Shown: piece by piece, positions 5,261 through 19,995 of the stretch
How positions within the stretch are numbered: the stretch's first letter is position 1
How the letters are laid out: every line of letters starts with the position of its first letter
Assembly: GCA_050260175.1 (NCBI GenBank)
Contig: JBLNBS010000070.1
Coordinates: 3,379 to 67,378, forward strand
Direction: 5' to 3'
DNA from: Patescibacteria group bacterium
Lineage (GTDB): Bacteria; Bacillota; UBA4882; JAAYXC01
DNA length: 64,000 bases
Notes under the pieces: model-generated
The model's input: only the letters and a program-made list of their open reading frames with translations
The model's database searches: none
What the model was told of the DNA's origin: nothing
Made by a program: the position numbers and the translations under genes

Positions 5261-5390
5261 AAGTCGAAACCCGAATCACGTGAAGGCACACGATCCGTGA
5301 CACGCGACTCGTTACGAACTTCGCCCCGACCATTTGACGCGGCGCGTGCCGTGGTGTATAATGAATTGGCCGGGGTCTCCCGGCTTTTTC

Positions 5391-5466
5391 GGGCCATTAG
5401 CTCAGTTGGCAGAGCACCTGACTTTTAATCAGGGAGTCTGGCGTTCGAGTCGCCAATGGCCCACCA
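5391..5466 (+). tRNA. tRNA-Lys (anticodon TTT), including CCA
   Basis: Cloverleaf: acceptor GGGCCAT/ATGGCCC, D arm GCTC..GAGC, anticodon loop CTTTTAA, T arm TGGCG-TTCGAGT-CGCCA, 3' CCA. Confidence 0.85.
5417..5466. repeat. attL core: 50-bp tRNA-Lys 3' segment duplicated at 19425-19474
   Basis: The 50-bp sequence CCTGACTTTTAATCAGGGAGTCTGGCGTTCGAGTCGCCAATGGCCCACCA occurs here and again 14 kb downstream. Confidence 0.7.
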
Positions 5467-5479
5467 GGATAAATGCCCG

Positions 5480-6742
5480 TCAGGACTGAATTCCTGCCGG
5501 GCTTTCTTTTTGTCCATCGGCGCCTACTGTATCCTTTGTGTATCCATTCCAAAGGGTATCCATAAAGGCGCCCATCCCCGCCGCCGCAGCCTCGTCCCGG
5601 CCCGGGAACAGGTGCCCATAAACCCCTAACGTCACGTGGATCGATGCGTGGCCCATGCGGTATTGCAAGGTCTTGGGGTCCACGCCTTGGGCGATCAGGA
5701 TCGCCGCGTGCGTGTGCCGCAAGGTATGCAAGCTTACCCCTTCGAGTCCGGCGGCCGAGGTTACTGCGGCCAGGTCCCGCCGCAGAACGTTCCTCTTCCT
5801 GAGCGGCCCGCCGTCCTCATCGGTGAAGACCAGATCCCATTCATTCCTCCACGGCGGCCAGTCCGGCACGTGCCGGCGCATGGCCGTTCTTCGTTCCCTG
5901 CGTTCGATGGCGGCCTGCTTCTCCGCGTCTTGGCGTTCCTTCTGCCGCGCCAAGGCGGCCATGCCCATGGGAGACAAGGTGATCGTCCGGCGGCCGGCGC
6001 CGGTCTTCACCGGGCTGATCGATATTTGACCCGTCGCCGAATCCTCGATGATGGCCTGCCGGACGGTGGCTTTCGACCCTTCCCAATCGATGGCGGACCA
6101 AGCTAAACCGCGCAGTTCCCCGGAACGCATCCCGCTGTCCAGGCCGAGCAGGAACAGATCCTCGAGCCTGGCCCCCCGGGCGGCGTCGAGGAACCGGCGC
6201 AGCTCGTCCGGTACGAGAAAGCGCGCTTCCTTGTGGGAGTAAGTCCGCTTTGCCGCCAAGCGGGCTGGGTTCCGCGCGATCAGCCCCTTGGCCAGGGCAT
6301 CGTCGAAGGCGGCCCGCAGGACAAGGGCGGCAAGGGCGACAGTCCGCGGGGAGAGCCCGGCCTCGTCCAGTTCGGCAAAGAGGGCGTTGATCCGTCGATA
6401 GTCCACCGCCGCCAGCTGAAGCCCGCCGAAGTAAGGCCGGATATATCGTTCATAGGTTTCCGTGTAGCTTGACAGGGTGGAAGGCCTGACTTCGGCTTTC
6501 TTCGCGCGCAGCCAGTCCCGGAAATGATGCTCGACCGTGATCCGCCCGACCTGGACCGGGGCGCCCTTCAACGCGTCGCCCTGCACGGTGCGCAGTTTCT
6601 CCAAGGCTTCGGTCTTGGTCCGGCCGTAGACTCGCCGGCGGATCCGCTTCCCGTTGGCGTCAAAGCCAAACGAGGCCTGAGCGTACCAAAGGCCGGACTT
6701 CAACCGGCCCACAGAACCTTCACCGCGGCCACGCCTTGGCAT
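5480..6742 (-). CDS. int: Tyrosine-type site-specific integrase
   Basis: N-terminal MPRRGRGEGS...GKRIRRRVYGRTKTEALEKL is typical of phage integrases. C-terminal catalytic region HTLRHTHAAIL...HASIHVTLGVYGHL carries the R..H..R..Y residues. RBS AAGGGAGG precedes the ATG at 6742. Confidence 0.85.
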   Translation of the reverse strand: MPRRGRGEGSVGRLKSGLWYAQASFGFDANGKRIRRRVYGRTKTEALEKLRTVQGDALKGAPVQVGRITVEHHFRDWLRAKKAEVRPSTLSSYTETYERYIRPYFGGLQLAAVDYRRINALFAELDEAGLSPRTVALAALVLRAAFDDALAKGLIARNPARLAAKRTYSHKEARFLVPDELRRFLDAARGARLEDLFLLGLDSGMRSGELRGLAWSAIDWEGSKATVRQAIIEDSATGQISISPVKTGAGRRTITLSPMGMAALARQKERQDAEKQAAIERRERRTAMRRHVPDWPPWRNEWDLVFTDEDGGPLRKRNVLRRDLAAVTSAAGLEGVSLHTLRHTHAAILIAQGVDPKTLQYRMGHASIHVTLGVYGHLFPGRDEAAAAGMGAFMDTLWNGYTKDTVGADGQKESPAGIQS

Positions 6743-6918
6743 TATGTCGCCTCCCTTGAATGGCCTCAAGATCGCTACGATCATATCAGGACGGGCTGGC
6801 ACAAACAAGGGCGAAGAACGAAAAGCGCGCCATCACAGCATTTGAAGGCGCCGACGACCGGATCATTGACCCGTGGTCGGGGCTAGATTTACGATAGGAC
6901 GCGAAAGGGGGCGCAGGA

Positions 6919-7140
6919 ATGAAAAGACAGAACGTTACTGAAGCGGCGTTTTTCGAGGATGGCTTGGTTCCGATCCCAGATGCGGCGCGATTCCTTGGGC
7001 TCGGGATCACAAAGGTCTACGAGTTAATGGGCAAGGGCCAGCTACCGTTCGTCTTGATCGACCGTTCCCGGCGGATCCGGCGAAGCGACCTTCGGCGGTT
7101 CGTAGAGGAACGGCGCCGCGGCGGGCAGGCGGCGAGCTGA
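6919..7140 (+). CDS. AlpA/excisionase-family HTH DNA-binding protein
   Basis: Short protein; AARFLGLGITKVYELMGKGQLPFVLIDRSRRIRRSDLRRF resembles the excisionase/MerR-type winged helix. It sits next to and divergent from the integrase gene. Confidence 0.55.
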   Translation: MKRQNVTEAAFFEDGLVPIPDAARFLGLGITKVYELMGKGQLPFVLIDRSRRIRRSDLRRFVEERRRGGQAAS

Positions 7141-7152
7141 GGAGGGATCGAG

Positions 7153-7419
7153 TTGGCGTGTGATGCCGGCGCTCATCATGATCCCGAAGGCTACCTGCTT
7201 CTTCCGCGGCAAATTCGGCGGACGCTCAAGACGGCCGGATTGGTCCTCGAGTGCTACCACGAAGAAAGCCTGGGGAAGATCATTGAGCTGTCTTGCCGGC
7301 GATGCGGGCGCGAGTGGGCGGTTTTCCGCATGTCAGACGGCCGCTATGTCCGTTCCTGGTGGCGCTGTCGGAACGGGTGCAACCTGCCAGGCCGACGGGC
7401 CAGCACGAAAGGGGGATGA
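7153..7419 (+). CDS. Small Cys-rich (zinc-ribbon-like) protein; TTG start after GAGGAGGG
   Basis: CRRCG...CRNGC motif pairs with a strong RBS upstream. No family assignment is possible. Confidence 0.35.
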   Translation: MACDAGAHHDPEGYLLLPRQIRRTLKTAGLVLECYHEESLGKIIELSCRRCGREWAVFRMSDGRYVRSWWRCRNGCNLPGRRASTKGG

Positions 7420-7426
7420 GCTGACG

Positions 7427-7603
7427 ATGGGCGATGTCATCCTTTTGCCTGCCCTACGTAACGGCCAGCTATGCCCAATGTGCTTCCAACACCCGGTCTT
7501 ACCGGGCCGGCTGTGCTGGACGTGTGAGCACTTGATGGATTCCGTGGAGGGATGCCTTCGCCGCGAGGAGGAACGGGAGAGGGCGATACCCCATGCAAAA
7601 TAA
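7427..7603 (+). CDS. Small zinc-ribbon protein
   Basis: CPMC...CWTC motifs. The ATG at 7427 is preceded by AAAGGGGGA. Confidence 0.3.
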   Translation: MGDVILLPALRNGQLCPMCFQHPVLPGRLCWTCEHLMDSVEGCLRREEERERAIPHAK

Positions 7604-7655
7604 AGAAAACGCGCCCGGCGGAAACGGGCGCGGCGACGAAGGGTTGGTGACAAGG

Positions 7656-8717
7656 ATGTCTCATAATCAGGATACCACATCCATCCCGCAGAGACAAGAT
7701 CTCGCGGGCTTTTTTGGAGGTCAATGGGTGGCGGTTCCGCGCATCCTGTGGAGGGTGATTTGGCAAAAAGGGCTTACCATGTTGGAACTTAGGATTCTTG
7801 CGGTTTTGATAGACCAATCCTGGCATGCCGGCTACCGGGTGGATACCATGTCGCAAATAACGCCCGGGGATCTCGAGACGCTGATCGGTGGTCCCCGTTC
7901 TCGGATAAGGGCGGCCCTGCGTGCAATGGAATCCTGCAATGTGATCCAAAGGGCTGATGGCGGCCGCTACAGCGTTAATAAAGATCCTTGGGCCTGGACC
8001 GGTGATTATGCACTTGATAGAGCGGCCTTCGATACCGCCATGAACCACCTGAAGAGGATGAAGGAACGGAAATACCAAGCCGATGCTTTAGCGCATGTGT
8101 GCGCATCACGTGCGCAGCACGTTATGCAAACGACCCAAACGACAAGCCCTAAAGGACCAGTAGCAGGCAATATAGGGAGCATGCCCGAAGCATGCCCGGA
8201 GCATGCCCAGTTAGCGAATCACGAAGTGGGGACAGATCGTCCCCAGGAAGAATTGAAAGTGGGGACAGATTGTCCCCAGCAAATGGGGACAGATCGTCCC
8301 CACCTCGACGCCGCAAACCCCTGCGGCGACGGCGACGGCGGCGCCCCTTTAGAAGGTTCTTTAGATCCTAAAAGAAAGAAAAAAAGCAACTTAGATCCCC
8401 CGGCTGCCGCCGCTCATTCTTTGTCCGCGCCTTCGGCGACGGACGACGCGCACCGAACCTATACGCCCGGGGTGATCGTCGAGAGAATCAATACTGCCCG
8501 GAGCTTCAAGGGCATGCCACCATTGACCGATGAAGAGACGCAGGCCGAATTGCCTGGGATCAAGAGGTTCTGCGAACGGTTTACCGACGACGAGATCCGC
8601 CGCGGACTGGGTGAATGGATGGCAGGTGACCAACCCGCGACCGTGCCCGCGTTGATAGCGTTTCTCGTGGCTCGGCAACATCCGAAGGTGAGCCGTGCAG
8701 AGCGGCTTGTGAGTTGA
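7656..8717 (+). CDS. Replication-initiator-like protein with an N-terminal winged-helix (HTH_36-like) domain
   Basis: LTMLELRILAVLIDQSWHAGYRVDTMSQITPGDLETLIGG...RAALRAMESCNVIQR resembles phage/plasmid replication-initiator DNA-binding domains. The gene contains iteron-like repeats. Confidence 0.45.
   Translation: MSHNQDTTSIPQRQDLAGFFGGQWVAVPRILWRVIWQKGLTMLELRILAVLIDQSWHAGYRVDTMSQITPGDLETLIGGPRSRIRAALRAMESCNVIQRADGGRYSVNKDPWAWTGDYALDRAAFDTAMNHLKRMKERKYQADALAHVCASRAQHVMQTTQTTSPKGPVAGNIGSMPEACPEHAQLANHEVGTDRPQEELKVGTDCPQQMGTDRPHLDAANPCGDGDGGAPLEGSLDPKRKKKSNLDPPAAAAHSLSAPSATDDAHRTYTPGVIVERINTARSFKGMPPLTDEETQAELPGIKRFCERFTDDEIRRGLGEWMAGDQPATVPALIAFLVARQHPKVSRAERLVS
8227..8302. repeat. Three iteron-like palindromic repeats TGGGGACAGAT(C/T)GTCCCCA inside the rep-like gene
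   Basis: Near-identical 19-bp units at 8227-8245, 8260-8278 and 8284-8302. Each is a 7-bp inverted repeat (TGGGGAC/GTCCCCA) around a 5-bp spacer. Confidence 0.6.
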
Positions 8718-8749
8718 CGGTCATTCCTGGAATAGGGAGGAGGAGCGCA

Positions 8750-8950
8750 ATGCGGCGCGAGATACCGGGATTCGTGCCATTCCGCTGTCTGAAGTGCGCA
8801 AGTCATCTCGTGTGGCTGATCGGGCGGTCCTCGATTTGGTGCTCAGGGTGCCAAAGGCACATCGGCTGGGAGGAGTTCGAGCGAAGCCCGAGTGGCATGG
8901 AGACACTGCGGCCGGCCAGGGATGCATCACACACAATCATCTCTCGCTGA
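8750..8950 (+). CDS. Small zinc-ribbon protein
   Basis: CLKC...CSGC motif pairs. The ATG at 8750 is preceded by GGGAGGAGG. Confidence 0.35.
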   Translation: MRREIPGFVPFRCLKCASHLVWLIGRSSIWCSGCQRHIGWEEFERSPSGMETLRPARDASHTIISR

Positions 8951-9281
8951 ATCTTAATCGCAGGTAGAAGGCACGTCACGAGGAGTTTTCGGAAACCAAC
9001 TTAAAAACAAAGCCACGATAGATCTATTGCCCAGCTAGACTGCGGGGCGTGGGATGCATCACAAGGCGTGAAAATCGAAAACAGGTCAGCGAGGGATGTT
9101 TACCAGATTTTTCCTCCCCCCCTCGGGTTCGGGTAGGGCGGCCAGGCGATGACCGGAAGGGGGAGGCTTCCGACTCGTACAGGCCGAAATTTCAAATTTT
9201 TCCCATGGATTCGAGGCCGCACGAGCCTGGTCCAGGAATTTCCTGGAAGAATGGACATTTTGCCGATTTCGGGAATCAAGC

Positions 9282-9310
9282 TTGACGGCTCATCGGGGAC
9301 ATGCTATAGT
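9282..9310 (+). promoter_or_regulatory. Strong candidate sigma-A promoter driving the RHH to tape-measure to capsid block
   Basis: TTGACG -35 box, 17-nt spacer, TATAGT -10 box, located after a ~400-bp non-coding gap. Confidence 0.5.
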
Positions 9311-9331
9311 ATTACCGATAGCATTACCGAT
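9311..9331. promoter_or_regulatory. Two direct repeats ATTACCGAT just downstream of the -10 box (candidate operator)
   Basis: ATTACCGAT at 9311-9319 and 9323-9331, between the promoter and the RHH gene. Confidence 0.4.
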
Positions 9332-9364
9332 GATATTCGCTTATAGACTATGAGGAGGATTCCG

Positions 9365-9841
9365 ATGGGCGATACTTTCAGTGTCAAGCTCCCGGCCGGT
9401 CTTCCCCTGGCCGACATCGACGCGGCAGCCGCGGCGCGGGGATTGAACCGCAACCAATTCGTAATCGATGCGATCGGGCTTCTGGCGGTCCTCACTCCCG
9501 AGTTCATCCAGGCAGTGGATCACTTCGCCGCCGGCCTTCGGGTACCGCGCGCGACGGTGATTGAGGCGTTCACGATCCGCCGCCTAGCGGAACTGAAGGC
9601 AAAGGCGACGGTTCACCCGCGCTATAGCGAAGCTCTGGATGAGATCATGCTCTCTTCGCGGGGCGCCATTCTTGGGCAAGAACTGCTTGCTACACTTACA
9701 AACCAATTCGCCCAGCGGGAGCGGGACCGCCTGACCCGGGCCGAACGGGCGAAGAACCCCAAGCAAACGGCGACCGGCGCCGGCATCCCGCCCGAGGCCG
9801 ACGAAGACGAGATAGTCACGCAGGGTGAGTTGGATGAGTAA
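9365..9841 (+). CDS. Ribbon-helix-helix (CopG/Arc-like) domain protein
   Basis: The N-terminus FSVKLPAGLPLADIDAAAAARGLNRNQFVIDAI fits the RHH beta-strand plus two helices. RBS GAGGAGG precedes the ATG at 9365. Confidence 0.4.
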   Translation: MGDTFSVKLPAGLPLADIDAAAAARGLNRNQFVIDAIGLLAVLTPEFIQAVDHFAAGLRVPRATVIEAFTIRRLAELKAKATVHPRYSEALDEIMLSSRGAILGQELLATLTNQFAQRERDRLTRAERAKNPKQTATGAGIPPEADEDEIVTQGELDE

Positions 9842-9996
9842 AAAAATCGCGCTGGTTCTGCTCATCCTGCTGATTGTGTGGCTTTTCAGGTCCCCCCGTG
9901 GGCGCCTGGTCACAGGAAGGCTAATCTACTGGGTGGCTTGGAACATCGGTTGGGCGGTTGAGCTTGTAAAATTGATTATTTTTGGGGGCGCTAAGG

Positions 9997-12552
9997 ATGG
10001 CGCTGCTGGGCAAACTCGCCGTCGCCGTAGTCGGTGACATCAACCAGCTCAAAACCTCTTTCCGCGAGGTCAAGAGAGAGTCCCAGTCTTTGGGGAGAGA
10101 GGTTCAGAAGTCCGGTCTGGGCCTTCAGCAGATCGCCAAGTATGGCACGATGGCCGGCGCGGCGATCGTATCGGCCATGGGCGCCATGACCATCGCCACT
10201 ACCAAGAGCGCGGAGGAGATCGATCTCCTCAGCAAAAGGACGGGCGTATCCCGCGAGGAACTGCAGGGCCTTGCCTACGCAGCCCAGCAAGAGGGCACGG
10301 ACATACAGAGCCTCGGAACGGCCCTGGCCCGGCTTTCGCAAAACATGTACGACGCGAGCCAGGGGACCGGCGAGGCGCGTAAGGCTTTCAAAGACTTCGG
10401 CATCGTTGTCACGGATGGACAGGGGCGCCTCCGGTCTTCTGCAGACGTGCTCATGGACCTGGCCGATCGCATGAGGGGTATGACCAACGAGACCGAGATG
10501 TCTGCCCTGGCCATGAAAGTACTTGGCCGTGGCGCGCAGGATTTGGTACCGTTCCTCCGTATGGGCCGGGCGGAGATCGAACGGCTCATCGAGGAGGCGC
10601 GACGGCTCGGATACGTCATCGGTGAAGAGGCAACAAAACAGCTCGAGGCCCTGGGGGACGAGCTTGACGCCATTAAAATAGGTTTTGCCGGGTTCGGTAG
10701 GCAAATCTCGGCGGACCTTGTGCCAGTTAATCTTGCCTTCGCCCGCGGCCTCAAGGAGATTTTGATGTGGATTCATGCGATCCCTGCGCCGATTCGCAAG
10801 CTGGTGACGGTCGGCTCCCTATTGGCAGGGACAATCGCCCTGATTGGGGGCGCCCTGTCGTTACTGGTTGTCAAAGCCGCAGCGGCCCGCGCGGCCTTGC
10901 TGGCTTTGGGCACATCGTTTGGGCCATTCCTTATTGGCGGAGCCGTCGTTGTCGGTATCGGAGCAGCCGTCAGTTTGATCGGTGAAATCGCCCAGCGTGT
11001 CAAAGTGATAAAAGGCGATCTCGACGATATGTCACGCAATACACTAGAAGCCGAACTCATCAAATGGGAAGCCAGGCTGAAAAAGGCGCGAGAAGAATTA
11101 CGAAAAACAGAAAAGATGGTCGGGCAAAAATATGATCCCAAGAAAAATACTGACATGTTGGGGCCGTTATATATCGGTGGTATTCTTGATGAAATTGAAG
11201 TCGCCAATAAAGCAGTCGCTAATCTCAAAAAGAGATTGAAAGAACTTGGCGAGGAAGAGCCTGCGGCTGGCACAGAGAAATGGTCCCTGACCGAAACCCT
11301 CGCCAAAGCCAAGAAAGAGCTTGCCGACATCGACAAGATAGCTGATGCCTTCGGCGACAAGAGCCAGGTAGCCGCCGACAAGATAGCCGTGCTCAAGCGC
11401 GTCATCGTTGACCTGATCGAGCATGGATATGACCCGACAAAGACCAGCCTGGGGAATCTCATCGCCATGTACCAGGCATATGCCGAGGCCTCCCAGGCCG
11501 CCACCGACGCCAAGGAGCGGGAAAAGAAGGCGACCGATCTCCTCACGCAAGCCCAGCAGGCACTCAACGGGGAGACCTACCAAGATATCTCCGCACTGGA
11601 GACCCTGCGCGCACAGCTTGAGGCGCAGGCAGCCGTGGATACGGAACGCGCCGATTCTCTCAGGGCGGCGGCCGCAGCCCTGAACGTCCTGATCCTATCT
11701 CTGCGCCAAGCGACCCAGGACGAGCAGAACGCCGCGGAAGCGACGGAACTCCTTGCCCAGGGGCAAGCCAAGCTGGCGGAGATGACCGGCCAAGCGATCC
11801 CGGAGTGGGAGACGTTCGCCCAGAAGCTCGAGGAGGCCGCCGCGGAGTCCGGCGTCCTGCCGGAGACGGCCGAGGCCCTGCGCGACCTGGCCGCGGCGAT
11901 CCGCGAGGCGGGCCTGGCCACCGTGGAGATCGAACCCTATGATTTCGAAACCGCCTTCATCGCCGGCCTGCGGGACACGGCCAAGGAGTGGAAGGACTTC
12001 CTGGACCACGTGCGCGGGGGCGCGGCGGACTTGGCACAGACCATGAACCAGACCCTCAACGACTTCTTCTTTGACGGTGTGACCGCTCAGCTCAAGAACC
12101 TGGGCGACTATGCCCAGCAGGTATTCAACTCCATCGCCCGCAGTTTCGCCAATATGCTCTCGGACATGTTAATGAACTGGCTGATGAGCGGCTTCACCAA
12201 CATATTTGGCGGCGGGTTCTTTGGTGGCGGGCCGGTTGGTATGCCCTGGCCGTCTTATATCGGTACCATGGCCGAGGGTGGGACCGTGGCGGCGCGGGCG
12301 GCCTACCTCGTGGGCGAACGCGGGCCTGAGTTATTCGTCCCGCAGCAGTCCGGGACCATCATCCCCAATGACGAGATCGGCAGTCTCTCCCCTAAAGTTA
12401 CAGTCAACCTGATTAATCAGTCCGGCACTCCCCTGCAGGTAACGGACCGCAGAACCGAGGTTGACGGCGAGCAGGTAGTCGCCACACTCTGGCTTGGCGC
12501 CTACTCGAAGAACAAGGGCGGCCTGCAGGACGTTCTTGGCGGGGGGCGATAA
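9997..12552 (+). CDS. Phage tail tape-measure protein (TP901-family-like)
   Basis: 852 aa, highly helical. The N-terminal core TGVSREELQGLAYAAQQEGTDIQSLGTALARL...FKDFGIVVTDGQGRLRS resembles tape-measure cores. Central hydrophobic segments and a long coiled coil follow. The C-terminus carries the conserved GERGPELFVP motif. Confidence 0.65.
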   Translation: MALLGKLAVAVVGDINQLKTSFREVKRESQSLGREVQKSGLGLQQIAKYGTMAGAAIVSAMGAMTIATTKSAEEIDLLSKRTGVSREELQGLAYAAQQEGTDIQSLGTALARLSQNMYDASQGTGEARKAFKDFGIVVTDGQGRLRSSADVLMDLADRMRGMTNETEMSALAMKVLGRGAQDLVPFLRMGRAEIERLIEEARRLGYVIGEEATKQLEALGDELDAIKIGFAGFGRQISADLVPVNLAFARGLKEILMWIHAIPAPIRKLVTVGSLLAGTIALIGGALSLLVVKAAAARAALLALGTSFGPFLIGGAVVVGIGAAVSLIGEIAQRVKVIKGDLDDMSRNTLEAELIKWEARLKKAREELRKTEKMVGQKYDPKKNTDMLGPLYIGGILDEIEVANKAVANLKKRLKELGEEEPAAGTEKWSLTETLAKAKKELADIDKIADAFGDKSQVAADKIAVLKRVIVDLIEHGYDPTKTSLGNLIAMYQAYAEASQAATDAKEREKKATDLLTQAQQALNGETYQDISALETLRAQLEAQAAVDTERADSLRAAAAALNVLILSLRQATQDEQNAAEATELLAQGQAKLAEMTGQAIPEWETFAQKLEEAAAESGVLPETAEALRDLAAAIREAGLATVEIEPYDFETAFIAGLRDTAKEWKDFLDHVRGGAADLAQTMNQTLNDFFFDGVTAQLKNLGDYAQQVFNSIARSFANMLSDMLMNWLMSGFTNIFGGGFFGGGPVGMPWPSYIGTMAEGGTVAARAAYLVGERGPELFVPQQSGTIIPNDEIGSLSPKVTVNLINQSGTPLQVTDRRTEVDGEQVVATLWLGAYSKNKGGLQDVLGGGR

Positions 12553-12554
12553 CG

Positions 12555-13325
12555 ATGCCGGCTTTTATTGAACCGCTGCCGCGCGGTACGGGGAACGCTG
12601 TGGTGGTTTGCCACAAAGCGCGATGGGCTCTCGTCCAGGATGACGAATTAAGGCGAAACATTCTCCTCCTCGCGCGGGAGTTTTTCCCGCTGGAGCATTG
12701 GCTTGCCCTGCGAGAAGGCGACCGCCTGGTTTATTGGCGCGTTGATGATCGATACCATCCCGGTAAAAACTTGGCCCTGGACGCGACTTGGTCGGCCACC
12801 GCGCCAACGCTACCAACGAACCCCGAAGACAGGCACGCGGTACGGCTGGGGCGAATTGTTGGCGTCCTCCCGGATCGGAGGCTTTGCTTCATCAGGGACT
12901 TGGCAACAGGCAGGGAGATCCTTTGCCACGCGCGGGCCGTTATACCCGCCAGTGATTGGTCTATGCTGACGGTAGGGACTCTGGTGTCTTTTTGCGCCGA
13001 TTACGATCGGCTCCATCCAGGTCTTTTCCGCGCCGTTGTTGTTCAGCGTGGCAATGCAGAGGAAATTCACGCCGGCCTCCCCGGGGTTCTCGTGGCCGCC
13101 GCCGATCCCCCGGTCGAGGACGGCCAGAAGGCCACAAAAAGCGAAGAGACCACCAGTGCCGCCGGTGTTGGCGGCGGCTGTGGCATAGAACCCGGGTTCC
13201 GCTGGAGAGCGGACCTGCCGCGGCCTGTTGGAGAGCAGGGAAACGGCCTTGCCGAACTACCACGAGGCCACCGCGCAAGAGTTGGAGAACCCTTGCCGCG
13301 GGCGTTGGAGAACGCGGCCGGATGA
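12555..13325 (+). CDS. Hypothetical protein; the 3' extent is uncertain
   Basis: Start codon overlaps the tape-measure stop (ATAACGATG). No recognisable domain. The C-terminal half is compositionally odd. Confidence 0.3.
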   Translation: MPAFIEPLPRGTGNAVVVCHKARWALVQDDELRRNILLLAREFFPLEHWLALREGDRLVYWRVDDRYHPGKNLALDATWSATAPTLPTNPEDRHAVRLGRIVGVLPDRRLCFIRDLATGREILCHARAVIPASDWSMLTVGTLVSFCADYDRLHPGLFRAVVVQRGNAEEIHAGLPGVLVAAADPPVEDGQKATKSEETTSAAGVGGGCGIEPGFRWRADLPRPVGEQGNGLAELPRGHRARVGEPLPRALENAAG

Positions 13326-13379
13326 ACGGACGGCAGGAGGGTGAATGGAACCCCAAAAACAGGAAAGGGAGTGTCACGG

Positions 13380-14642
13380 ATGACACCTGATGAGATTCGG
13401 GCTGCGATCGCGGAAAAGGGCGAGCAGAAACGCGCGTTACTCAGGCGGATTGACAAAGCCCCCGTGGAGGAACTTAGAGCGATCAATATCGGCCTGGAAA
13501 ACCTGAACGCGGAAATCGCCGATTTGCAGCAGCAATTGGCCGAAAGCGAAGCCCAGCGGACGCCTGGCGGCCCTGTGGGTCGGATGCAGATCTTGGGTAC
13601 CTATGGAATCCACCCCGCCGCCGGCAACGTCGCGGGCACGGGCGCCATGCGGGAAGAGTTCCGCGCGGCCCTCGAGGAAAAAGGCAAGGCGCTTCTCGAG
13701 CGGCGCGCGGTGATCTTTACACCCGAGGAGATCGCGGAAGCACGGTCCATCACAATCGCTACTACCGGGATCGTAACAGGCAAGGCCGTCGATCCGACGA
13801 TCGCCCCCGCGCCCCAGCAGGTGAGCGCGCTGATCGACATGGTAGACGCGCCGACGATGATTGGTGCCGAATCGTTTGCCAAGCCGTTCCTGGTCAGCGT
13901 AGGGGAGGGCGATTACACCGGCGAAGGTTTAGACGCCGCGGAAGCGGAACCGACCTTTGGATCGGTTACGATTCAAAAGGCGAAAGTGACCGCGTATGCC
14001 GAATTTTCCGAGGAAATGCGCAAACTGTCGCCGATTGACTACGCCGTGGCCATCATCGGCGGGGTTCGGGAAGCCGTGCGAAAAAAACTCGGCCGGCAGA
14101 TCGTTGTCGGCTCCGGTGGTGTCAATGCCCTCGTTGGCATCTATAACGCCCCGGAGGCCGTCATCCCGGCCGCGTCGGACCTGGAGATTGGGACCGTCGA
14201 TTCGGAGACACTCAACAAGTTAATTTTCGGCTTCGGCGGAGATGAGGCCGTGGAAGGCGAAGAGGCCGTCCTGATCCTGAACAAGCTGGACCTCAAAGCC
14301 CTCGCGGATCTTTATGGAAACGATGGTCGAAACCTTTACGACATCCAATATGCCGGCGCTACTGGGTTTATCACTAACCGCGGGGGCGGCGGGATGAAGA
14401 TTCGGTACGTCATCAACGGCGCATGCGGCGTTCTGAGCGACCCGGCTACAGTCGCAGGTGCCAAAACCATGTTGTTCGGCTATGCCAAGGCCTATACCCT
14501 GTGTCAGTTCAGCGGCCTCGAGGTCCAAGAGTCATCCGAGTACCTCTTCAAGAAGGGCATGATTGCAGTGCGGGCCGTTGCGATGGTTGGCGGTAACACG
14601 GCGCGGTACAAGGGTTTCGTCCGTGTCAAGAAAGCGGCCTAG
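13380..14642 (+). CDS. HK97-fold major capsid protein-like protein with an N-terminal coiled-coil delta domain
   Basis: About 420 aa. The first ~100 aa are coiled coil (scaffold-like delta domain). The C-terminal part has the glycine-rich, beta-rich pattern of HK97-family capsid proteins (GFGGDEAVEGEEAVLILNK...ITNRGGGGMKIRYV...). AAGGGAG RBS precedes the start. Confidence 0.5.
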   Translation: MTPDEIRAAIAEKGEQKRALLRRIDKAPVEELRAINIGLENLNAEIADLQQQLAESEAQRTPGGPVGRMQILGTYGIHPAAGNVAGTGAMREEFRAALEEKGKALLERRAVIFTPEEIAEARSITIATTGIVTGKAVDPTIAPAPQQVSALIDMVDAPTMIGAESFAKPFLVSVGEGDYTGEGLDAAEAEPTFGSVTIQKAKVTAYAEFSEEMRKLSPIDYAVAIIGGVREAVRKKLGRQIVVGSGGVNALVGIYNAPEAVIPAASDLEIGTVDSETLNKLIFGFGGDEAVEGEEAVLILNKLDLKALADLYGNDGRNLYDIQYAGATGFITNRGGGGMKIRYVINGACGVLSDPATVAGAKTMLFGYAKAYTLCQFSGLEVQESSEYLFKKGMIAVRAVAMVGGNTARYKGFVRVKKAA

Positions 14643-14795
14643 CGGCGCCCTGAGAACCTCGTGGAGTTACAGCGCGCCCGGTTCACGCCGGGCGCGCCTA
14701 CGGTTCCCGCGTGATCCCGGCCTTTTCGTTCGTCCTTGGCAGGGCGGCAGCCGGGGGCGATGAACCCCCGGCCGCCGGCAAGAGGAGATGATTCC

Positions 14796-15407
14796 ATGGA
14801 CCGCTACTTCGTTGACAAGGATGGCTATGTGTACAGATACGATGGGGAATTAGAGCGGCCAGATCCCGAGATCACGGAGGCACTTGCCGAGATCACCCTG
14901 GCCCGCCATCAACGGTTCCCTTTCCCCCTGCCCGCCGACTGGCCGCGGTTTAGAGCCTTCATTACCTCTAGCGGTGAGGTGTACGTTGCCGAAGCGCCAC
15001 GCAACGAAGCAGATAAGGACATCTCCTGCCGGCTGCCAAAGTACCACGTATCACCGACGTACATCACTCCGTCTGGCGATTGCTATAACGGCGACAGGCA
15101 GAGCGAAGAGGACATCGAAGTTCCTCCCAAGCCTCCTTTCCATAGGTGGGATGGCCAGAAATGGGCCTTCGACATTGAGGTGTACCGTCAGGAGTATCTG
15201 CGGCCCCGGCGTAATGCCCTGTTGGCCGCGACCGATTGGACGGACCTACCTTCCGCTCCGCTTACGGCGGAACAGAAGGCGGCCTGGCAAACTTACCGGC
15301 AGGCTCTACGGGATCTCCCCGAAAAGACCACAAGTGCCGAAGTGGCCTGGCCGGAGATGCCGATGAAAATCCAAACCCTACCTGATTTAGGAGGTCTGAT
15401 AGCATGA
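14796..15407 (+). CDS. Phage tail fibre assembly (Tfa)-like protein
   Basis: The C-terminal motif NALLAATDWTDLPSAPLTAEQKAAWQTYRQALRDLP...WPEMP matches the conserved Tfa/gpG C-terminus (W..YR..L......WP..P). RBS AGAGGAG precedes the start. Confidence 0.45.
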   Translation: MDRYFVDKDGYVYRYDGELERPDPEITEALAEITLARHQRFPFPLPADWPRFRAFITSSGEVYVAEAPRNEADKDISCRLPKYHVSPTYITPSGDCYNGDRQSEEDIEVPPKPPFHRWDGQKWAFDIEVYRQEYLRPRRNALLAATDWTDLPSAPLTAEQKAAWQTYRQALRDLPEKTTSAEVAWPEMPMKIQTLPDLGGLIA

Positions 15408-16213
15408 GCGGCGCCATCAAAGTTTCCGGCGCGACGTTTCTCCATTTATGTTATCATCCCACTATCCACGAGTCTCAGCCCGTCGAACACCTGGGCGTGA
15501 AGCCGTGGGCCATAGGACGGTCATACGAGTTCGGAAAGACCGCCAATCCGCACAAAAAATTCATTGATTCGCGGCTCTTTGGTATTAAGAATCCCCACAC
15601 AGGGAACATTCATTTTTTGAATCACTTAATACAAGAGATATATTCATTTGGGAAAACAGGTCAAAAAGACTCCGTGATATCCACTTTTTACCACTATGAC
15701 CCGCTTATCGCATTCCATGAGGCTAATGTTTTAATTTATGAACTGCTCTATATCATCCGCGAACAAATCTTTGAGGAGGTCAGGCGGGAGCGGTTCCCTT
15801 CGCTTCCTTCCAGGGAAACATGCCTCTTCGCCTTGAATGACAGCGAGAAAGATCTTGATTATTGGATAAACAATCTGCTTGGCGGCCGGGCAGCGGCCGA
15901 AGGTAAAGAATCCTTCCCGGTTACCCTGGTTAAAATCAGGTTCACCGGGAAGGTGTTCAAAACAAACCGCTTGACCGGTGTGTTTCTGCCGCTGGTTTCT
16001 GCGGGTCCGGATTATTGGCGCGAACAAGCGGGCAAGTACTGGTCGGGATCCGTCCCAGACTCACCAGACGCGGAAGAGGTTCTTCTTGGGGAAGGCGTAG
16101 GCGTGGTCGAATCTATTTCTCCGATCGAGTGGCGCGTGGATCCTGTGCAGTTCAGTACGGCGCGAAAGGCCGAACTGGTCCAGACTACCTTGGTCCCGGC
16201 GGCAGGAGGTTGA
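15404..16213 (+). CDS. Hypothetical protein in a low-GC island (cargo/moron candidate)
   Basis: The 5' two-thirds is markedly AT-richer than its surroundings. The start overlaps the upstream stop (ATGA). No family recognised. Confidence 0.45.
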   Translation: MSGAIKVSGATFLHLCYHPTIHESQPVEHLGVKPWAIGRSYEFGKTANPHKKFIDSRLFGIKNPHTGNIHFLNHLIQEIYSFGKTGQKDSVISTFYHYDPLIAFHEANVLIYELLYIIREQIFEEVRRERFPSLPSRETCLFALNDSEKDLDYWINNLLGGRAAAEGKESFPVTLVKIRFTGKVFKTNRLTGVFLPLVSAGPDYWREQAGKYWSGSVPDSPDAEEVLLGEGVGVVESISPIEWRVDPVQFSTARKAELVQTTLVPAAGG

Positions 16214-16291
16214 TTCCAGATTAACTACATACGCTGCGCCAATCCGAACTGCTCCACCCTGTTTGACTCCCGGTGCGGCTCTGTTTGTTCA

Positions 16292-17209
16292 GTGTGCCGT
16301 GCGGCCCAGGCGGCGGGGAAGCTGCCCTTAGAATTTCCCAAGATTGAGCCAGCCGCTACAGTCACTCCCGCAGGATCGGGAAGTCTCGTCACATATTTCC
16401 CGGTGCACCATGGTTCCCTGGGCGTCCAGATACGAGGCGCGGAATATTCATGGGTTCGCTATACTTCGGGGTTCTCCGCGCCGCCCGACGTGGTGGACCT
16501 TTGCACGGTCTACCATACGTGGTCCCTTGTCGGGATGAGTTATCATCAATGGGGCAGGATTATTGTTCGACCCAAGTCCTATGTTGGGCTTTATTCGACC
16601 CCCCGATGTCACAACGATCTATTTGATGATTTTCACGCCATAACAAGAGTGGATCTCGAAATGATGGAGAAATGGGGCCGAGAAAACAATTCGTTATTTG
16701 ATTGGCGGTTGTCTTCTTCGAATCCACCAAATGGACGCGGACCTAAACAATTTGGCGAAAACGCGATTATTCCGATTTGTATTGCCCAAATACCCGAAGG
16801 TTTCCTCAAGGTTTTTTATGGCGGTGTTCATTCGTTTGGGTTGAACTGGGAATTCTCACCCGATGGTAGATTCAGCAGCAATACGGAACCTCCAACTGCG
16901 GAAGACAGCAAAATGCTGTATGAACGCGCGTTCCGGATCAAGGCCGCGAAAATGCTCTGGTTGACTGATTGGACTACCCGGGCTGATGCACCGCTGACGG
17001 AAGAGAAACGCGCAGCCTGGGACGCATACCGCGCGGCTCTTTACTGCCCAGACGAGATCCTTTCGGGTGCCCGGGAGATGCCGCGGATGCCGGCAGGCCG
17101 GGTCCTTAATCCGAGGTGGGACTCAGCACCGATGGAAATCTGTTGGGACACCTGGTGGAAGTTCAGGGAGCCGGCTGGCAACGCAGGTGATTTTCCCTTG
17201 GCTGAGTGA
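16292..17209 (+). CDS. Hypothetical protein with a Tfa-like C-terminal motif; possible Cys-rich N-terminal extension from 16214
   Basis: C-terminus AAKMLWLTDWTTRADAPLTEEKRAAWDAYRAAL repeats the motif of the 14796 gene. The in-frame upstream stretch encodes RCANPNCSTLFDSRCGSVCSVC. Confidence 0.4.
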   Translation: MCRAAQAAGKLPLEFPKIEPAATVTPAGSGSLVTYFPVHHGSLGVQIRGAEYSWVRYTSGFSAPPDVVDLCTVYHTWSLVGMSYHQWGRIIVRPKSYVGLYSTPRCHNDLFDDFHAITRVDLEMMEKWGRENNSLFDWRLSSSNPPNGRGPKQFGENAIIPICIAQIPEGFLKVFYGGVHSFGLNWEFSPDGRFSSNTEPPTAEDSKMLYERAFRIKAAKMLWLTDWTTRADAPLTEEKRAAWDAYRAALYCPDEILSGAREMPRMPAGRVLNPRWDSAPMEICWDTWWKFREPAGNAGDFPLAE

Positions 17210-17247
17210 CGGTCCGTTTCGATCGGCAGCACCATGGAGGGTGAGAG

Positions 17248-17703
17248 ATGGCCGCGAGAACGCCGGGTGATCTCCTGCTGAGTTACGATGAGATCCGGCT
17301 GGTCTATAACACCCTGGCCGGCGTCCCGAACAAGTCTTTGCCCGCGGCTGAACTCCTGGGCAAGCTCTATCGGGCCATCGTGGTCCGGGCATCCCAGGAA
17401 GAGCGGGCGGAATTGGCCGCGCGGATCCGTGCCGGCGTGAACTATGCCGGCCGGCTGTGCCCGGAGTGCGGCCGGGGCCTCGAGAAGATCGCCGGCCAAG
17501 ATGCCTATGGCTGTCCCAAATGCGGCGGCGAGTGGTGGCCGGCGGACTCGAACGAGGCGCCGATGTCGGCGGCGGCCTTGTGGCAGGACGAGCAGCGGGT
17601 GAAGCGAGCCCTGATCGACCCGAACTCCCACGGCGGCGGCAAAAAGGGAGGTCGGCGTCAAAAGCAAAAGAAGCCGCCGCCAGTGCCCTGGTACCAAAGA
17701 TGA
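17248..17703 (+). CDS. Zinc-ribbon protein (CPECG...CPKCG) with a basic C-terminal tail
   Basis: Cys pairs spaced for a zinc ribbon, with a Lys/Arg-rich C-terminus. Confidence 0.4.
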   Translation: MAARTPGDLLLSYDEIRLVYNTLAGVPNKSLPAAELLGKLYRAIVVRASQEERAELAARIRAGVNYAGRLCPECGRGLEKIAGQDAYGCPKCGGEWWPADSNEAPMSAAALWQDEQRVKRALIDPNSHGGGKKGGRRQKQKKPPPVPWYQR

Positions 17704-17715
17704 TCCCCGCCCGGT

Positions 17716-17744
17716 CTATATAGACCTATATAGACTCTATATAG
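17716..17744. repeat. Three phased copies of the palindrome-like CTATATAG(A) at ~10.5-bp spacing
   Basis: CTATATAGA at 17716-17724 and 17726-17734, CTATATAG at 17737-17744. They lie between the ends of two convergent genes and overlap the stop of the minus-strand HTH gene. Confidence 0.6.
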
Positions 17745-17961
17745 GTTTTGTATCGTACGAAACAATTGTCTGGTTCAACCGTTCCCGGATCGCCTCTTTC
17801 GAGATCCTGAACCTGCGCCCGATCCTCATGGCCGGGATCTGGCCGGCATGGATGGCGTCGTAGATCGAGTCGTGCGTGACGTGTAGAAGCTCCGCCGCCT
17901 GATCGACGGTTAGCACGTCGTCATAATCATCGAACCGCTTGGGTTTGCGAGATCTGGGCAT
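17737..17961 (-). CDS. Excisionase-family HTH DNA-binding protein
   Basis: LTVDQAAELLHVTHDSIYDAIHAGQIPAMRIGRRFRISKEAIRERL matches the excisionase-type HTH fold. Confidence 0.6.
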   Translation of the reverse strand: MPRSRKPKRFDDYDDVLTVDQAAELLHVTHDSIYDAIHAGQIPAMRIGRRFRISKEAIRERLNQTIVSYDTKPI

Positions 17962-18340
17962 GCGGAATAATTCGCCCTACTGACTGCTTCTCCTCCATCC
18001 CCGAAAGTGGGGTGGACGCCGAACAGGTCAGGGCGGGCGGCGGGGACCAGGACGAGGGGAGGGTACTTTTACGTCCAGCCCTCAATATCCCGTCCTGGGG
18101 CATCCTGAGGCCTCGTTTTTGGGCCGATGCCCGCCCGGCGTAGGTTTGGAGACTGTAGCGCCTCTCTTGCGGAATACCCCGAACTGTTATAAGCTTGATC
18201 AGAGGCCGTGGATCGGTAGTTTGCGGCTCCCCATCCGCGCCTCCGGCCCGGGGCTTAACCGCCCCGGGCTTTTGCGGGTTACGGGTATAAAAAACCCCCA
18301 CGGGGAGATCCCGAAGGGGTTTATAGCCAATGAGGACAAC

Positions 18341-18538
18341 TTACGCGGGGCGGATTTGTGCATTGCACTGATCACAGAAGAACCGCTCTCCGTCGTCTAT
18401 GGCCTTCTGTATGTCCACAAAGGTGATTAGATCGTCCTGCCTTACTTTGTCAACTTCTTCTTCTGTGGCACAATCTTTACAAACTATTTCTTTATTGATG
18501 TAATACCCAGCGATTTCCTCATCTTTATAGGTGGCCAT
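18341..18538 (-). CDS. Small acidic zinc-ribbon protein
   Basis: CKDC...CDQC motif pairs in an AT-rich segment. Confidence 0.35.
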   Translation of the reverse strand: MATYKDEEIAGYYINKEIVCKDCATEEEVDKVRQDDLITFVDIQKAIDDGERFFCDQCNAQIRPA

Positions 18539-18671
18539 GGGTTACACCTCCTTTCGTCTGCCTTCATGATACCAGATCCTCTGGGCAAGCCCCAATAGGT
18601 GCGAAAATTCTTTTATTGACCGCTTGCCGTTACCTGCCACAGGCGGCCGCCATCCCGGACGGCACAATCCC

Positions 18672-18935
18672 CTAAGACTGGCGCCCCATAGAGACAAGGA
18701 TGGACTTCATTGCTTCGGCGAGAGGCACTTTCTTATGGCTTGGCGGCCGTTTCATACCAAGATCCGCCCAAGTGATAATCGCAATATCTGCCGCTTTCAG
18801 TTTCTCATTGGCCAAGCGCCAGATCGTGTGGTTCATGGCTTCGGGCAGATTGGCGAACGGGATGACAACCGGACCCGTCGAGAAATTCGCGGCAGCGGCG
18901 GCGATTTCCGGCCGGACGTGCAGACCGTCTTCCAT
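18672..18935 (-). CDS. Hypothetical protein
   Basis: ORF with coding-like composition; no family recognised. Confidence 0.25.
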   Translation of the reverse strand: MEDGLHVRPEIAAAAANFSTGPVVIPFANLPEAMNHTIWRLANEKLKAADIAIITWADLGMKRPPSHKKVPLAEAMKSILVSMGRQS

Positions 18936-19039
18936 CACTACACCCCTTCTCGCTTGTAAGTACATGCCTTCATATATAATACCATGCGTTCATATGGATG
19001 TCAAGCTTCGCATATGACCGAATTGTCTTCTAGTGTAGT

Positions 19040-19249
19040 TTGTGGTATCCTGTTACCGGGGAGGTGATCCGCTTGGAGTTCTTGACACCCGAGGAGGCCG
19101 CGGCCAAGCTCAAAGTGACCCGGCGAACGGTCTACAAATGGCTGACATCGGGGCGCATCAAGGGCGTAAAGCTTGGCGATAGTTCGTTATGGCGCATCCC
19201 GGAATCAGAGATGCTCCGCCTTCTCGGAGAGAGCCAAGGCCAAAAGTAA
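19040..19249 (+). CDS. Excisionase-family HTH DNA-binding protein (start uncertain)
   Basis: LTPEEAAAKLKVTRRTVYKWLTSGRIKGVKLGDSSLWRIPESEM matches the excisionase-family HTH fold. It lies next to attR. Confidence 0.5.
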   Translation: MWYPVTGEVIRLEFLTPEEAAAKLKVTRRTVYKWLTSGRIKGVKLGDSSLWRIPESEMLRLLGESQGQK

Positions 19250-19424
19250 AGGCCGGGGATCATCTCCCCGGCCGGTGATGGGCAATTCTCATGTATCCAT
19301 TTTGTATCCATATGGGCGAAAAAACGCCCTAAAAAACGGATGACGACGAAACCCATGATGGGCTAAAACCCCAGTATTATGAAGGACTTCGGGCACTGAT
19401 GAAAATACATGAAAAAGGCCTGAT

Positions 19425-19474
19425 CCTGACTTTTAATCAGGGAGTCTGGCGTTCGAGTCGCCAATGGCCCACCA
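19425..19474. repeat. attR: 50-bp copy of the tRNA-Lys 3' end
   Basis: Identical to 5417-5466. It lacks the 5' 26 nt of the tRNA. Confidence 0.7.
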
Positions 19475-19482
19475 GCTTTAAG

Positions 19483-19517
19483 AAGGGCTTGCGATTATTT
19501 CGTAAGCCCTTTTTTTG
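19483..19517 (+). terminator. Rho-independent terminator (probably the original tRNA-Lys terminator)
   Basis: Hairpin AAGGGCTTGCG-ATTATTT-CGTAAGCCCTT followed by TTTTTTT. Confidence 0.5.
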
Positions 19518-19739: not shown

Positions 19740-19847
19740 ATGGGCGGCAGCACCGGCGGTCTCGGCATTTTCGGTGGCAATTTCGCCTTCATCGTCTTCT
19801 TGGTCTTCATCCTGTTGCTCTTTGGCGACAGTTTTCCCCGTAACTAA
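19740..19847 (+). CDS. YjcZ-like tiny glycine-rich transmembrane peptide (35 aa)
   Basis: MGGSTGGLGIFGGNFAFIVFLVFILLLFGDSFPRN. RBS AAGGGAGAG. Not in the ORF track because it is under 60 aa. Confidence 0.5.
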   Translation: MGGSTGGLGIFGGNFAFIVFLVFILLLFGDSFPRN

Positions 19848-19920: not shown

Positions 19921-19995
19921 ATGGGCGGTACCCATGGAGGATTAGGCGGCATCAACATTATCTGGCTCCTCCTCCTTTTGTTGCTCTTCCTCTAG
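19921..19995 (+). CDS. Second YjcZ-like tiny transmembrane peptide (24 aa)
   Basis: MGGTHGGLGGINIIWLLLLLLLFL; tandem paralogue of the preceding peptide. Confidence 0.4.
   Translation: MGGTHGGLGGINIIWLLLLLLLFL

Follow-up and report, generated by a model that had tools for sequence, protein, structure and literature searches.

What kind of DNA separates the intact tRNA-Lys(UUU) gene of contig JBLNBS010000070.1 from a second copy of its 3' end some 14 kb downstream, and can it move? We analysed a stretch of 64,000 nucleotides (nt) of this contig (positions 3,379 to 67,378; hereafter the window), which belongs to a metagenome-assembled genome (MAG) deposited as "Patescibacteria group bacterium" (GCA_050260175.1). 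An earlier note, made from the letters of the sequence, had proposed that a site-specific integrative element occupies the interval. Our analysis agrees with this proposal, and we read the 14 kb as a phage-derived mobile island inserted in the 3' end of the tRNA-Lys gene. An integrase-bearing island in a tRNA gene is routine and of a very common kind; the value of this one lies in its sharp boundaries and in an attP whose parts (core, arm repeats and replacement terminator) can be read off. Less ordinary is its cargo, in which a complete tape-measure protein (TMP) and a complete major capsid protein (MCP) of separate origin, plus a tail-fibre chaperone, are carried by a non-autonomous element. 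With moderate confidence, we regard the element as a non-autonomous, probably helper-dependent, satellite-like island of phage origin. The features discussed are collected in Table 1.

Integration at the tRNA-Lys gene

The 3' 50 nt of the tRNA-Lys gene, which form most of the attL core, had been noted to recur exactly downstream. Alignment of the two segments bore this out and extended the match by one base: positions 5417-5467 and 19425-19475 are identical over 51 nt (100% identity) and form a two-copy family with a spacing of 14,008 bp, as found by a repeat finder and checked by script. The bases bordering the repeat are not alike between the copies (A/T upstream, G/C downstream). A 24-nt probe of the tRNA-Lys 3' end, searched with up to three mismatches, matched the two core copies only, with none expected in shuffled sequence; tandem elements, which a further degenerate copy would have suggested, are thus not indicated. 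The element measures 13,957 bp between the cores and 14,008 bp together with one 51-bp core. Its GC content between the cores is 0.586, against 0.668 in the left flank, formed by purA, and 0.651 in the right flank, formed by tRNA-Arg(ACG), an Rsm22-type methyltransferase and a DEAD/DSHCT helicase. The two tRNAs were the sole matches of an Rfam scan.

Repeats of the tRNA 3' end at both ends, with one complete tRNA, are what a tRNA-integrated tyrosine-recombinase element presents, and a catalytic tyrosine recombinase adjoins the att site. The earlier note had placed the start of the integrase gene 14 bp from the tRNA. The distance is correct, but the gene does not start there: it lies on the minus strand and is transcribed towards tRNA-Lys, so that its stop codon stands 14 bp from the tRNA. 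The terminator-like hairpin at 5475-5502 is element DNA behind the regenerated tRNA-Lys and overlaps the 3' end of int. Thus, the element evidently brings a replacement terminator for the tRNA gene that it regenerates.

The unoccupied site that the earlier note had suggested seeking in related genomes was found in a contig designated L001. In a purA scan of genome contigs, L001 was the closest hit with 78% amino acid identity, the next best reaching at most 62%, and it is the only relative that close to the window. Collinearity of L001 and the window extends from position 3 through tRNA-Lys, and purA and the tRNAs are syntenic; the spacing from tRNA-Lys to tRNA-Arg(ACG) is 1.7 kb in L001 versus 14.7 kb in the window, and L001 has no 14-kb insert. 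In L001, tRNA-Lys is followed by CCACCAGCTTATAAGG..., a hairpin and a T-run; this sequence aligns with the flank of attR in the window and not with the flank of attL. The ancestral order was therefore tRNA-Lys followed by its terminator, and the 14 kb is an insertion. The hairpin at 19480-19514 folds and aligns with this same sequence of L001, in keeping with the proposal that the original tRNA terminator now stands behind the distal copy. An exact look-up of the flanking purA, aimed at a strain with an empty site, returned no record.

The repeat, the integrase, the intact tRNA, the drop in GC content and the site in L001 agree on an attL/attR pair that bounds about 14.0 kb, as had been claimed. 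As far as sequence allows, the anatomy of the integration is established. On our reading, the element entered when its tyrosine integrase recombined attP with the 3' 51 bp of the tRNA-Lys gene. This event rebuilt a complete tRNA at attL, with the tRNA 3' half and the replacement terminator contiguous with element DNA, and displaced the original terminator by 14 kb, to a position behind the partial copy at attR.

The element was also found outside the MAG. Besides the MAG contig, of 67.9 kb in full, its capsid and replication initiator (Rep) proteins occur in Logan assemblies of the runs SRR24035584, SRR24035586 and SRR24035588. The Logan unitig L081 equals window positions 5439-18247 at 100% identity, and the unitig L087 represents a second allele that covers 5438-10474 at 99.2% identity. 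L087 differs from the window by an extra 24-bp iteron, by two indels that fall in the gap at 8951-9364 and by a few single-nucleotide polymorphisms (SNPs). Both unitigs begin 29-30 nt inside the core, as expected of a k=31 graph at a two-copy repeat. The Logan unitigs confirm the sequence of the element, while the attL and attR joins come from the MAG contig alone.

Two observations concern the neighbourhood of these loci. The unitigs L081 and L082, from different runs, both end at window position 18247, and a G+C-rich hairpin (GCCCGGGGC-TTAACC-GCCCCGGGC-TTTTG), unique in the window, lies at these ends (18245-18270); the common end reflects either a coverage drop at the hairpin or a right-hand 1.2 kb that differs between alleles. 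In L001, the 1.7-kb spacer between tRNA-Lys and tRNA-Arg (11625-13366) holds an open reading frame (ORF) for a membrane-like protein of 212 aa that is not present in the window, and to the right of tRNA-Arg synteny between L001 and the window is lost.

Recombination and replication modules

The integrase retains its catalytic residues (R206, H339-x-x-R342, H365 and Y375) and is identical in the variant L087. Short repeats of the TGTATCCAT type lie just inside both ends of the element. With at most one mismatch, seven copies occur in the 64 kb, and five of the seven, all on the plus strand, lie no more than 150 bp inward of the two cores; a post-hoc Poisson estimate for such clustering gives p of ~5e-11, and the window-wide count is not enriched. 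On the circularised element, the copies fall at -125/-114 and +61/+72/+88 around the core. By analogy, this layout resembles the arm-type integrase sites of a lambda-like attP, and we regard the repeats as putative sites of this kind. Among the three HTH_17 genes, the one at 19064-19249, which ends 175 bp before the attR core, appears to be the best candidate for the recombination directionality factor (RDF). Because the integrase is intact, three HTH_17 genes are present and arm-type-like repeats lie inside both ends, it is plausible that the element may still be excisable.

The N-terminal domain of Rep matches the Phage_rep_O family PF04492 with E = 4.7e-5 across profile positions 11-95 of 95, at 24.3 bits, which is below the 28.7-bit cutoff. 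The lambda origin of replication lies within gene O, where iterons and then an A+T-rich tract occupy the linker of the initiator gene. The rep gene of the island has the same layout: its iterons lie within the gene, and an A+T-rich tract comes after them. The number of iterons is three in the window and in L081 and four in L087 (SRR24035588; L087 positions 2740-2990). The fourth 24-bp iteron is in frame, giving a Rep of 382 aa in L087 versus 374 aa, and every iteron contributes one peptide unit of the VGTD(R/C/H)PQ(E/Q) type with the frame kept. Pfam and PHROG scans of the element found no lambda-P-like or DnaC-like helicase loader. The hardware for recombination and replication looks complete.

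Ancestry of the tape-measure and capsid genes

The TMP of the island is 40-52% identical over its full length to phage TMPs, which are themselves mutually 38-50% identical, one close pair aside. Its identity profile, with ~60% at the N-terminus, ~30% in the middle and ~50% at the C-terminus, is as in phage TMPs. Five distinct contexts of related TMPs were inspected, namely L088, L089, L090 (with the near-identical copies L091 and L092), L093 and L094, and all five are canonical lambda-like siphophage late operons. The order in L089 is large terminase (TerL), portal, S78 protease, MCP, connectors, tail tube, chaperone, TMP and gpM-, gpL-, gpK- and gpJ-like genes; L088 is without the head genes at the start, and L093 and L094 stop at the TMP. 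Two of these contigs, L089 and L094, stem from the run series that also yielded the island (SRR24035584, SRR24035587), which makes phages of the L089/L094 type, with their related TMPs, candidate helpers.

The capsid genes of these phages are unrelated to the MCP of the island. Derivation of the island from an L089-type phage by deletion was rejected, since the TMP is all that the two have in common. The nearest relative of the MCP, P0002, with 50% identity, is encoded on a contig of 3.4 kb (L084, JGI 3300022230; locus at 170-2130). There, an HTH_17 gene resembling the attR-proximal one of the island comes next, in place of head-tail connector genes. L084 may be a second "orphan capsid" locus, on a contig that is only 3.4 kb long. 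The other relatives of the MCP reach 40-43% identity; in both contexts inspected, the gene belongs to an ordinary TerL-portal-protease-MCP operon of another lineage. By their relatives, TMP and MCP stem from different phage lineages. As a side observation, L084 also has a small Csx3-like ORF beside its capsid and HTH_17 genes.

The order of the two genes is likewise not that of a phage. The MCP lies 3-4 kb upstream of the TMP in all 26 of the 26 IMG/VR contigs that hold relatives of both, and the order in the island is reversed. An alignment query with the MCP in IMG/VR found relatives of 28-47% identity only, none with another island gene. By tblastx, no debris of neighbouring structural genes was detected beside TMP or MCP. 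Over the first 477 nt of the TMP gene, the window and L087 differ by four SNPs, all of them synonymous third-position changes. Single-protein queries with the MCP, the integrase and the TMP found no related loci in viral contigs, and an alignment query with the MCP in metagenomes confirmed no relative, the patterns being too generic.

Cargo genes

All ORFs of at least 100 aa and the small called genes were scanned against Pfam, PHROGs, NCBIfam and PADLOC. From the gene set of an autonomous temperate tailed phage, the element has only the TMP, the MCP and a tail-fibre chaperone. Scans with Pfam, PHROGs and NCBIfam found no terminase, portal, protease, connector, tail tube, baseplate, holin or lysin, and no ORF or unassigned gap could accommodate TerL or the portal. 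Without terminase, portal, protease, tube and lysis genes, the element can therefore not make a virion and is not an autonomous phage.

The MCP carries an N-terminal coiled-coil (delta-like) domain. The N-terminus of the 158-aa protein encoded ahead of the TMP has, by eye only, a ribbon-helix-helix look; a small-terminase-like role for it is only a guess, and its single-sequence AlphaFold2 model is poor (pLDDT 57). For the 256-aa protein between TMP and MCP, the single-sequence AlphaFold2 model is unusable (pLDDT 36). One of its relatives, P0149, has a PF00313 CSD match across the aligned part. Searches of phages by tblastn with Rep (cultured phages), the 256-aa protein and the DUF2441 protein gave no match. 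An exact look-up of the 65-aa gene at the right end returned no record, and PADLOC gave no match on the cargo beyond one weak Zn-ribbon match.

Three other classes of element were considered and set aside. An intact small prophage is ruled out by the gene content. An encapsulin operon was rejected, as the capsid protein is an ordinary HK97 MCP of phage type: its relatives are phage proteins, and cargo or encapsulin families gave no match. An integrative and conjugative element or integrative and mobilizable element was also rejected, there being no match to a relaxase, a coupling protein or a type IV secretion system.

Table 1. Features of the tRNA-Lys island and its borders, in window coordinates
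Feature	Position	Strand	Evidence or remark
Sigma-70-like promoter TTGACG-17-TATAAT	5334-5362		Upstream of tRNA-Lys
tRNA-Lys(UUU), intact	5391-5466	+	ARAGORN (ttt anticodon); Rfam RF00005, 68.6 bits
attL core, 51 bp	5417-5467		Spans anticodon stem through CCA and one further G; identical to 19425-19475
Terminator-like hairpin in element DNA	5475-5502	+	-17.8 kcal/mol, z = -3.1, then CUUUCUUUUU
Tyrosine integrase, 420 aa (gene caller)	5480-6742	-	PF00589 5e-21; phrog_1 2.6e-72
Three TGTATCCAT-type repeats, putative P' arm-type integrase sites	5528-5563	+	61-88 bp from core
HTH_17 (AlpA/excisionase-family) gene	6919-7140	+	Divergent from int; PF12728 9e-11; phrog_66 "excisionase and transcriptional regulator"
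Replication initiator (Rep), 374 aa, lambda-O-like N-terminal domain	7593-8717	+	PF04492 Phage_rep_O
Putative origin inside rep	8178-8396		Repeats, iterons, A+T tract
Three 11-bp AGCATGCCC repeats	8178-8208		Inside rep
Three 17-bp palindromic iterons GGGGACAGATCGTCCCC	8228-8301		Inside rep
75% A+T tract	~8357-8396		~55 bp past iterons, in 59% GC element
Small CxxC...CxxC protein, 66 aa	8750-8950	+	Called in L081; no family match
Promoter-like site TTGACG-17-TG-TATAGT	9282-9310	+	In 415-bp non-coding gap before rhh158-TMP-MCP string
All-helical protein (rhh158), 158 aa	9365-9841	+	No Pfam, NCBIfam or PDB match
Tail tape-measure protein (TMP), complete, 851 aa	9997-12552	+	PF10145, many TMP PHROGs
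Orphan with cold-shock-like OB segment, 256 aa	12555-13325	+	Between TMP and MCP
HK97-type major capsid protein (MCP), complete, 420 aa	13380-14642	+	PF05065 7e-27; TIGR01554 92.7 bits; phrog_10
Tail-fibre assembly chaperone, 203 aa	14796-15407	+	PF16778 4e-18; phrog_4912
DUF2441 protein	15404-16213	+	PF10386 2.8e-11; PDB 2AUA "hypothetical protein" 9e-8; no PADLOC match
ORF with second, weak tail-fibre-chaperone C-terminus	16292-17209	+	PF16778 5.7e-5, below cutoff
Zn-ribbon protein, 151 aa	17248-17703	+	PADLOC Cas12u2 9.6e-5, profile positions 358-435 of 445
Second HTH_17/excisionase-family gene	17737-17961	-	PF12728 1.9e-14; PHROG RDF and excisionase families
Double-CxxC protein, 65 aa	18341-18538	-	Read from sequence; sub-threshold Pfam matches only
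Orphan gene, 97 aa	18672-18965	-	No family match
Strong promoter-like site TTGACA-17-TG-TATTAT	19004-18976		Ahead of 97-aa orphan gene
Third HTH_17/excisionase-family gene	19064-19249	+	PF12728 6.9e-14; phrog_66, phrog_2907 excisionase
Two exact TGTATCCAT repeats, putative P arm-type sites	19292-19311	+	114-125 bp from core
attR core, partial tRNA-Lys 3' copy, 51 bp	19425-19475		Exact match to 5417-5467
Ancestral tRNA-Lys terminator hairpin	19480-19514	+	-22.6 kcal/mol, z = -7.0, then U-run

Nature of the element

How could an element with this gene set persist and spread? In the satellite-like reading that we favour, Int together with an HTH_17 factor would excise the element as a circle, and Rep would then fire the internal origin. 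Spread would depend on a helper phage for packaging and for the remaining parts of the particle, and the capsid and tape-measure proteins of the island would be built into, or would reshape, the helper particle. The TMP of the island, with 851 aa, is longer than helper TMPs of 793-814 aa, so that slightly longer tails would be predicted if it were incorporated. Excising, replicating and using a helper in this manner, the element would be a phage satellite in behaviour, belonging to none of the named families. Such a life style would explain the compact size, the complete int/RDF/att and rep/ori modules and the single rightward string of genes behind the promoter-like site at 9282-9310. It would also explain why lysis and packaging genes are missing and yet those structural genes are kept. 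The end-to-end TMP, the synonymous SNPs, the separate ancestries, the missing debris and the reversed order suggest that TMP and MCP have been selected rather than left over.

A narrower version of this reading is that the island is the first member seen of a new satellite type, in an uncultured high-GC bacterium: a tRNA-integrating element with a tyrosine integrase and a RepO replicon that hijacks a lambda-like siphophage, using just its own MCP, TMP and fibre chaperone, captured from different phages, to re-size or re-target particles whose building, packaging and release are otherwise left to the helper. We offer this version tentatively, as a possibility less probable than the broader one.

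Several observations weigh against the satellite-like reading. No helper was identified, and no circular form or encapsidated copy of the element was seen. A degenerate junction pattern for attL, attR, attB and attP gave 0 matches in JGI metagenome contigs, and a pattern specific for attR and attP gave 0 matches in IMG/VR. No small terminase, pac or cos site or known capsid-size factor was identified in the element. A search of 5.8 billion proteins found no homologue of Rep outside its own cluster, and the 256-aa protein is close to an orphan, with three weak relatives only among 1.8 billion representatives. Megablast of the whole element against phage and plasmid collections gave no match, and a related island that shares this gene set did not turn up in the collections searched. 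Because there is no related island and no DNA match, and Rep and the 256-aa protein are orphans, comparative evidence of spread is lacking. The four synonymous SNPs in the TMP gene are a small sample. The MCP deviates at 15 of 88 highly conserved columns, compared with 0-8% of them for most phage MCPs, the replacements being mostly conservative. The ORF at 16292-17209, which is 37.5% identical to the C-terminus of the chaperone encoded at 14796-15407, shows flat GC in all three phases of the codon, and gene callers did not report it as one gene; it is probably decayed. The Zn-ribbon gene at 17248-17703 may be a C-terminal (RuvC/Zn-finger) fragment of a TnpB-like/Cas12f gene. About 24% of the element lies outside called genes.

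Many of these points would fit a cryptic, decaying prophage remnant, the alternative that survives best. On this account, which we consider less likely than the satellite-like one, a mosaic temperate phage settled at tRNA-Lys and lost most of its late genes by deletion and rearrangement. TMP, MCP and chaperone would then be leftovers without a current role, in an element in which excision may persist but spread does not occur. Every recognisable cargo gene is of phage type, the element is a singleton with no related islands found, the MCP is unusually divergent at conserved positions, and no packaging-hijack gene was recognised. The weak duplicate chaperone ORF with its flat codon-phase GC, the possible TnpB fragment and the 24% of non-coding DNA read as signs of decay. 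However, simple deletions can neither set the TMP upstream of the MCP nor give the two genes separate ancestries. A remnant produced by deletions would be expected to show phage gene order, a single ancestry and gene debris, and none of these holds. All four of TMP, MCP, int and rep have their full length, the TMP has the conservation profile of working phage TMPs with only synonymous differences between alleles, and the Rep frame is kept despite gain or loss of an iteron. Long recombination combined with decay could still yield the present state.

Anti-phage interference would assign the same proteins another role: copies of capsid protein and TMP would poison or mis-size invading phages and so protect the host, with transfer being rare or achieved otherwise. 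Prophage- and PICI-borne genes that interfere with tail assembly are described in PMC11364771. The island does hold one copy each, complete and conserved, of proteins that have to assemble together with phage partners, and phages with related TMPs occur in the same samples. To our knowledge, however, decoys consisting of a whole MCP or TMP are without precedent. No PADLOC defence model matches the cargo, the one weak Zn-ribbon match aside, and no sequence feature separates interference from satellite use of the same proteins. We consider this explanation improbable.

Least probable is an assembly artefact, in which an element existing only as a free circle (a phage-like plasmid or satellite with a tRNA-like attP) was threaded into the chromosome via the shared 51 bp: the window is indeed a metagenome-assembled contig, and the Logan unitigs stop inside the repeat so that the joins cannot be confirmed from them, but the artefact needs an assembler k-mer of at most 51 and the same error at both ends, the replacement terminator at attL and the ancestral terminator at attR are as true integration predicts, and even if it were correct, the element and its attP would remain real.

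Comparison with known families

If the island is satellite-like, which family does it resemble? The island shares much with lambdoid-type prophages and remnants that integrate in tRNA genes. Its core runs from the anticodon stem past the CCA, the tRNA is regenerated and int lies beside the att site; arm-type repeats (putative here) surround the core, an excisionase-family RDF candidate is present, and the replicon, whose iterons and A+T-rich tract fall within the gene of the initiator, appears to be of lambda-O style. In contrast to such prophages, the island is only 14 kb long and lacks terminase, portal, protease, tail tube and lysis genes as well as a recognisable CI/Cro-type repressor. Its two structural genes are of different ancestry and in inverted order, for which deletion alone is no explanation.

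Among satellites, one likeness is in cargo. The EPIP satellites of Mycolicibacterium carry an MCP plus a TMP in 11 kb, and TMPs are otherwise not present in satellites, according to a preprint of December 2025 (PMC12822802). The island, with 14 kb, is likewise a small element in which MCP and TMP are present and the rest of the virion and lysis genes are missing. However, EPIPs have a serine integrase, a small terminase (TerS), a head-to-tail adaptor, a stopper and a scaffolding protein, none of which was found in the island, whereas the integrase of the island is a tyrosine recombinase, its att site is a tRNA gene and its replicon is RepO-like; the two are set apart by description only.

For capsid-forming PICIs (cf-PICIs), the criteria in 10.1101/2025.02.11.637232 are a size of 10-18 kb, modules for integrase, regulation and replication, an own HK97 capsid gene, no lytic genes and no complete tail module. 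The island resembles them in size (14.0 kb) and modules (int, HTH_17 genes, and Rep plus iterons), has no lysin or holin match, and its tail genes are the TMP and the fibre chaperone. That source also lists an eight-gene packaging module composed of the capsid and protease genes plus those for portal, adaptor, connector, HNH, small terminase and large terminase, and of these eight the island has the capsid gene only. cf-PICIs are also without a tape-measure gene, unlike the island.

The general layout recalls classical PICIs/SaPIs and P4-like elements: int plus a divergent AlpA/HTH_17-type gene at the left end, next a replication module with its origin, then a long rightward string, in ~14 kb with a dedicated att site. 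In contrast to these elements, the island has a RepO-like replicase in place of a primase-helicase replicase and no Stl-type repressor, and Pfam and PHROGs gave no match to terS, cpm, ppi, psu, sid or delta. Structural genes, absent from classical PICIs by definition, are present here as MCP and TMP. With P4-like elements, the island shares int and an AlpA-family HTH only. On gene content and layout, the island classes as a tRNA-integrated tyrosine-recombinase element with a satellite-like layout that falls in no named satellite family.

If the island exploits a helper, it would extend the observation of a TMP in a satellite to another recombinase class, another replicon and another bacterial lineage, and it would provide a test case for how a minimal set of genes lets a satellite reset the dimensions of both head and tail. 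As a remnant and nothing more, it would be ordinary.

Other features of the window

The "Patescibacteria group bacterium" label of the source MAG, or its binning, looks doubtful. The GC content of the window is 65-67%, and the nearest purA relatives carry the labels Bacteroidota MAG (78%), Bacillota (57-62%) and Heliobacterium (56%). Two tiny ORFs (19740-19847 and 19922-19996), located in host DNA that separates attR from tRNA-Arg, encode peptides that are Gly-rich and then very hydrophobic, MGGSTGGLGIFGGNFAFIVFLVFILLLF... and MGGTHGGLGGINIIWLLLLLLLFL; we take them to resemble the YjcZ-type sporulation peptides of Firmicutes. Further to the right, a sharp low-GC patch (51581-54015; 0.46 versus 0.65 around it) spans the C-terminal tip of a YD/Rhs-repeat ORF and the next ORF, for a membrane protein of 97 aa. 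This patch looks like a swapped polymorphic-toxin tip with its immunity gene.

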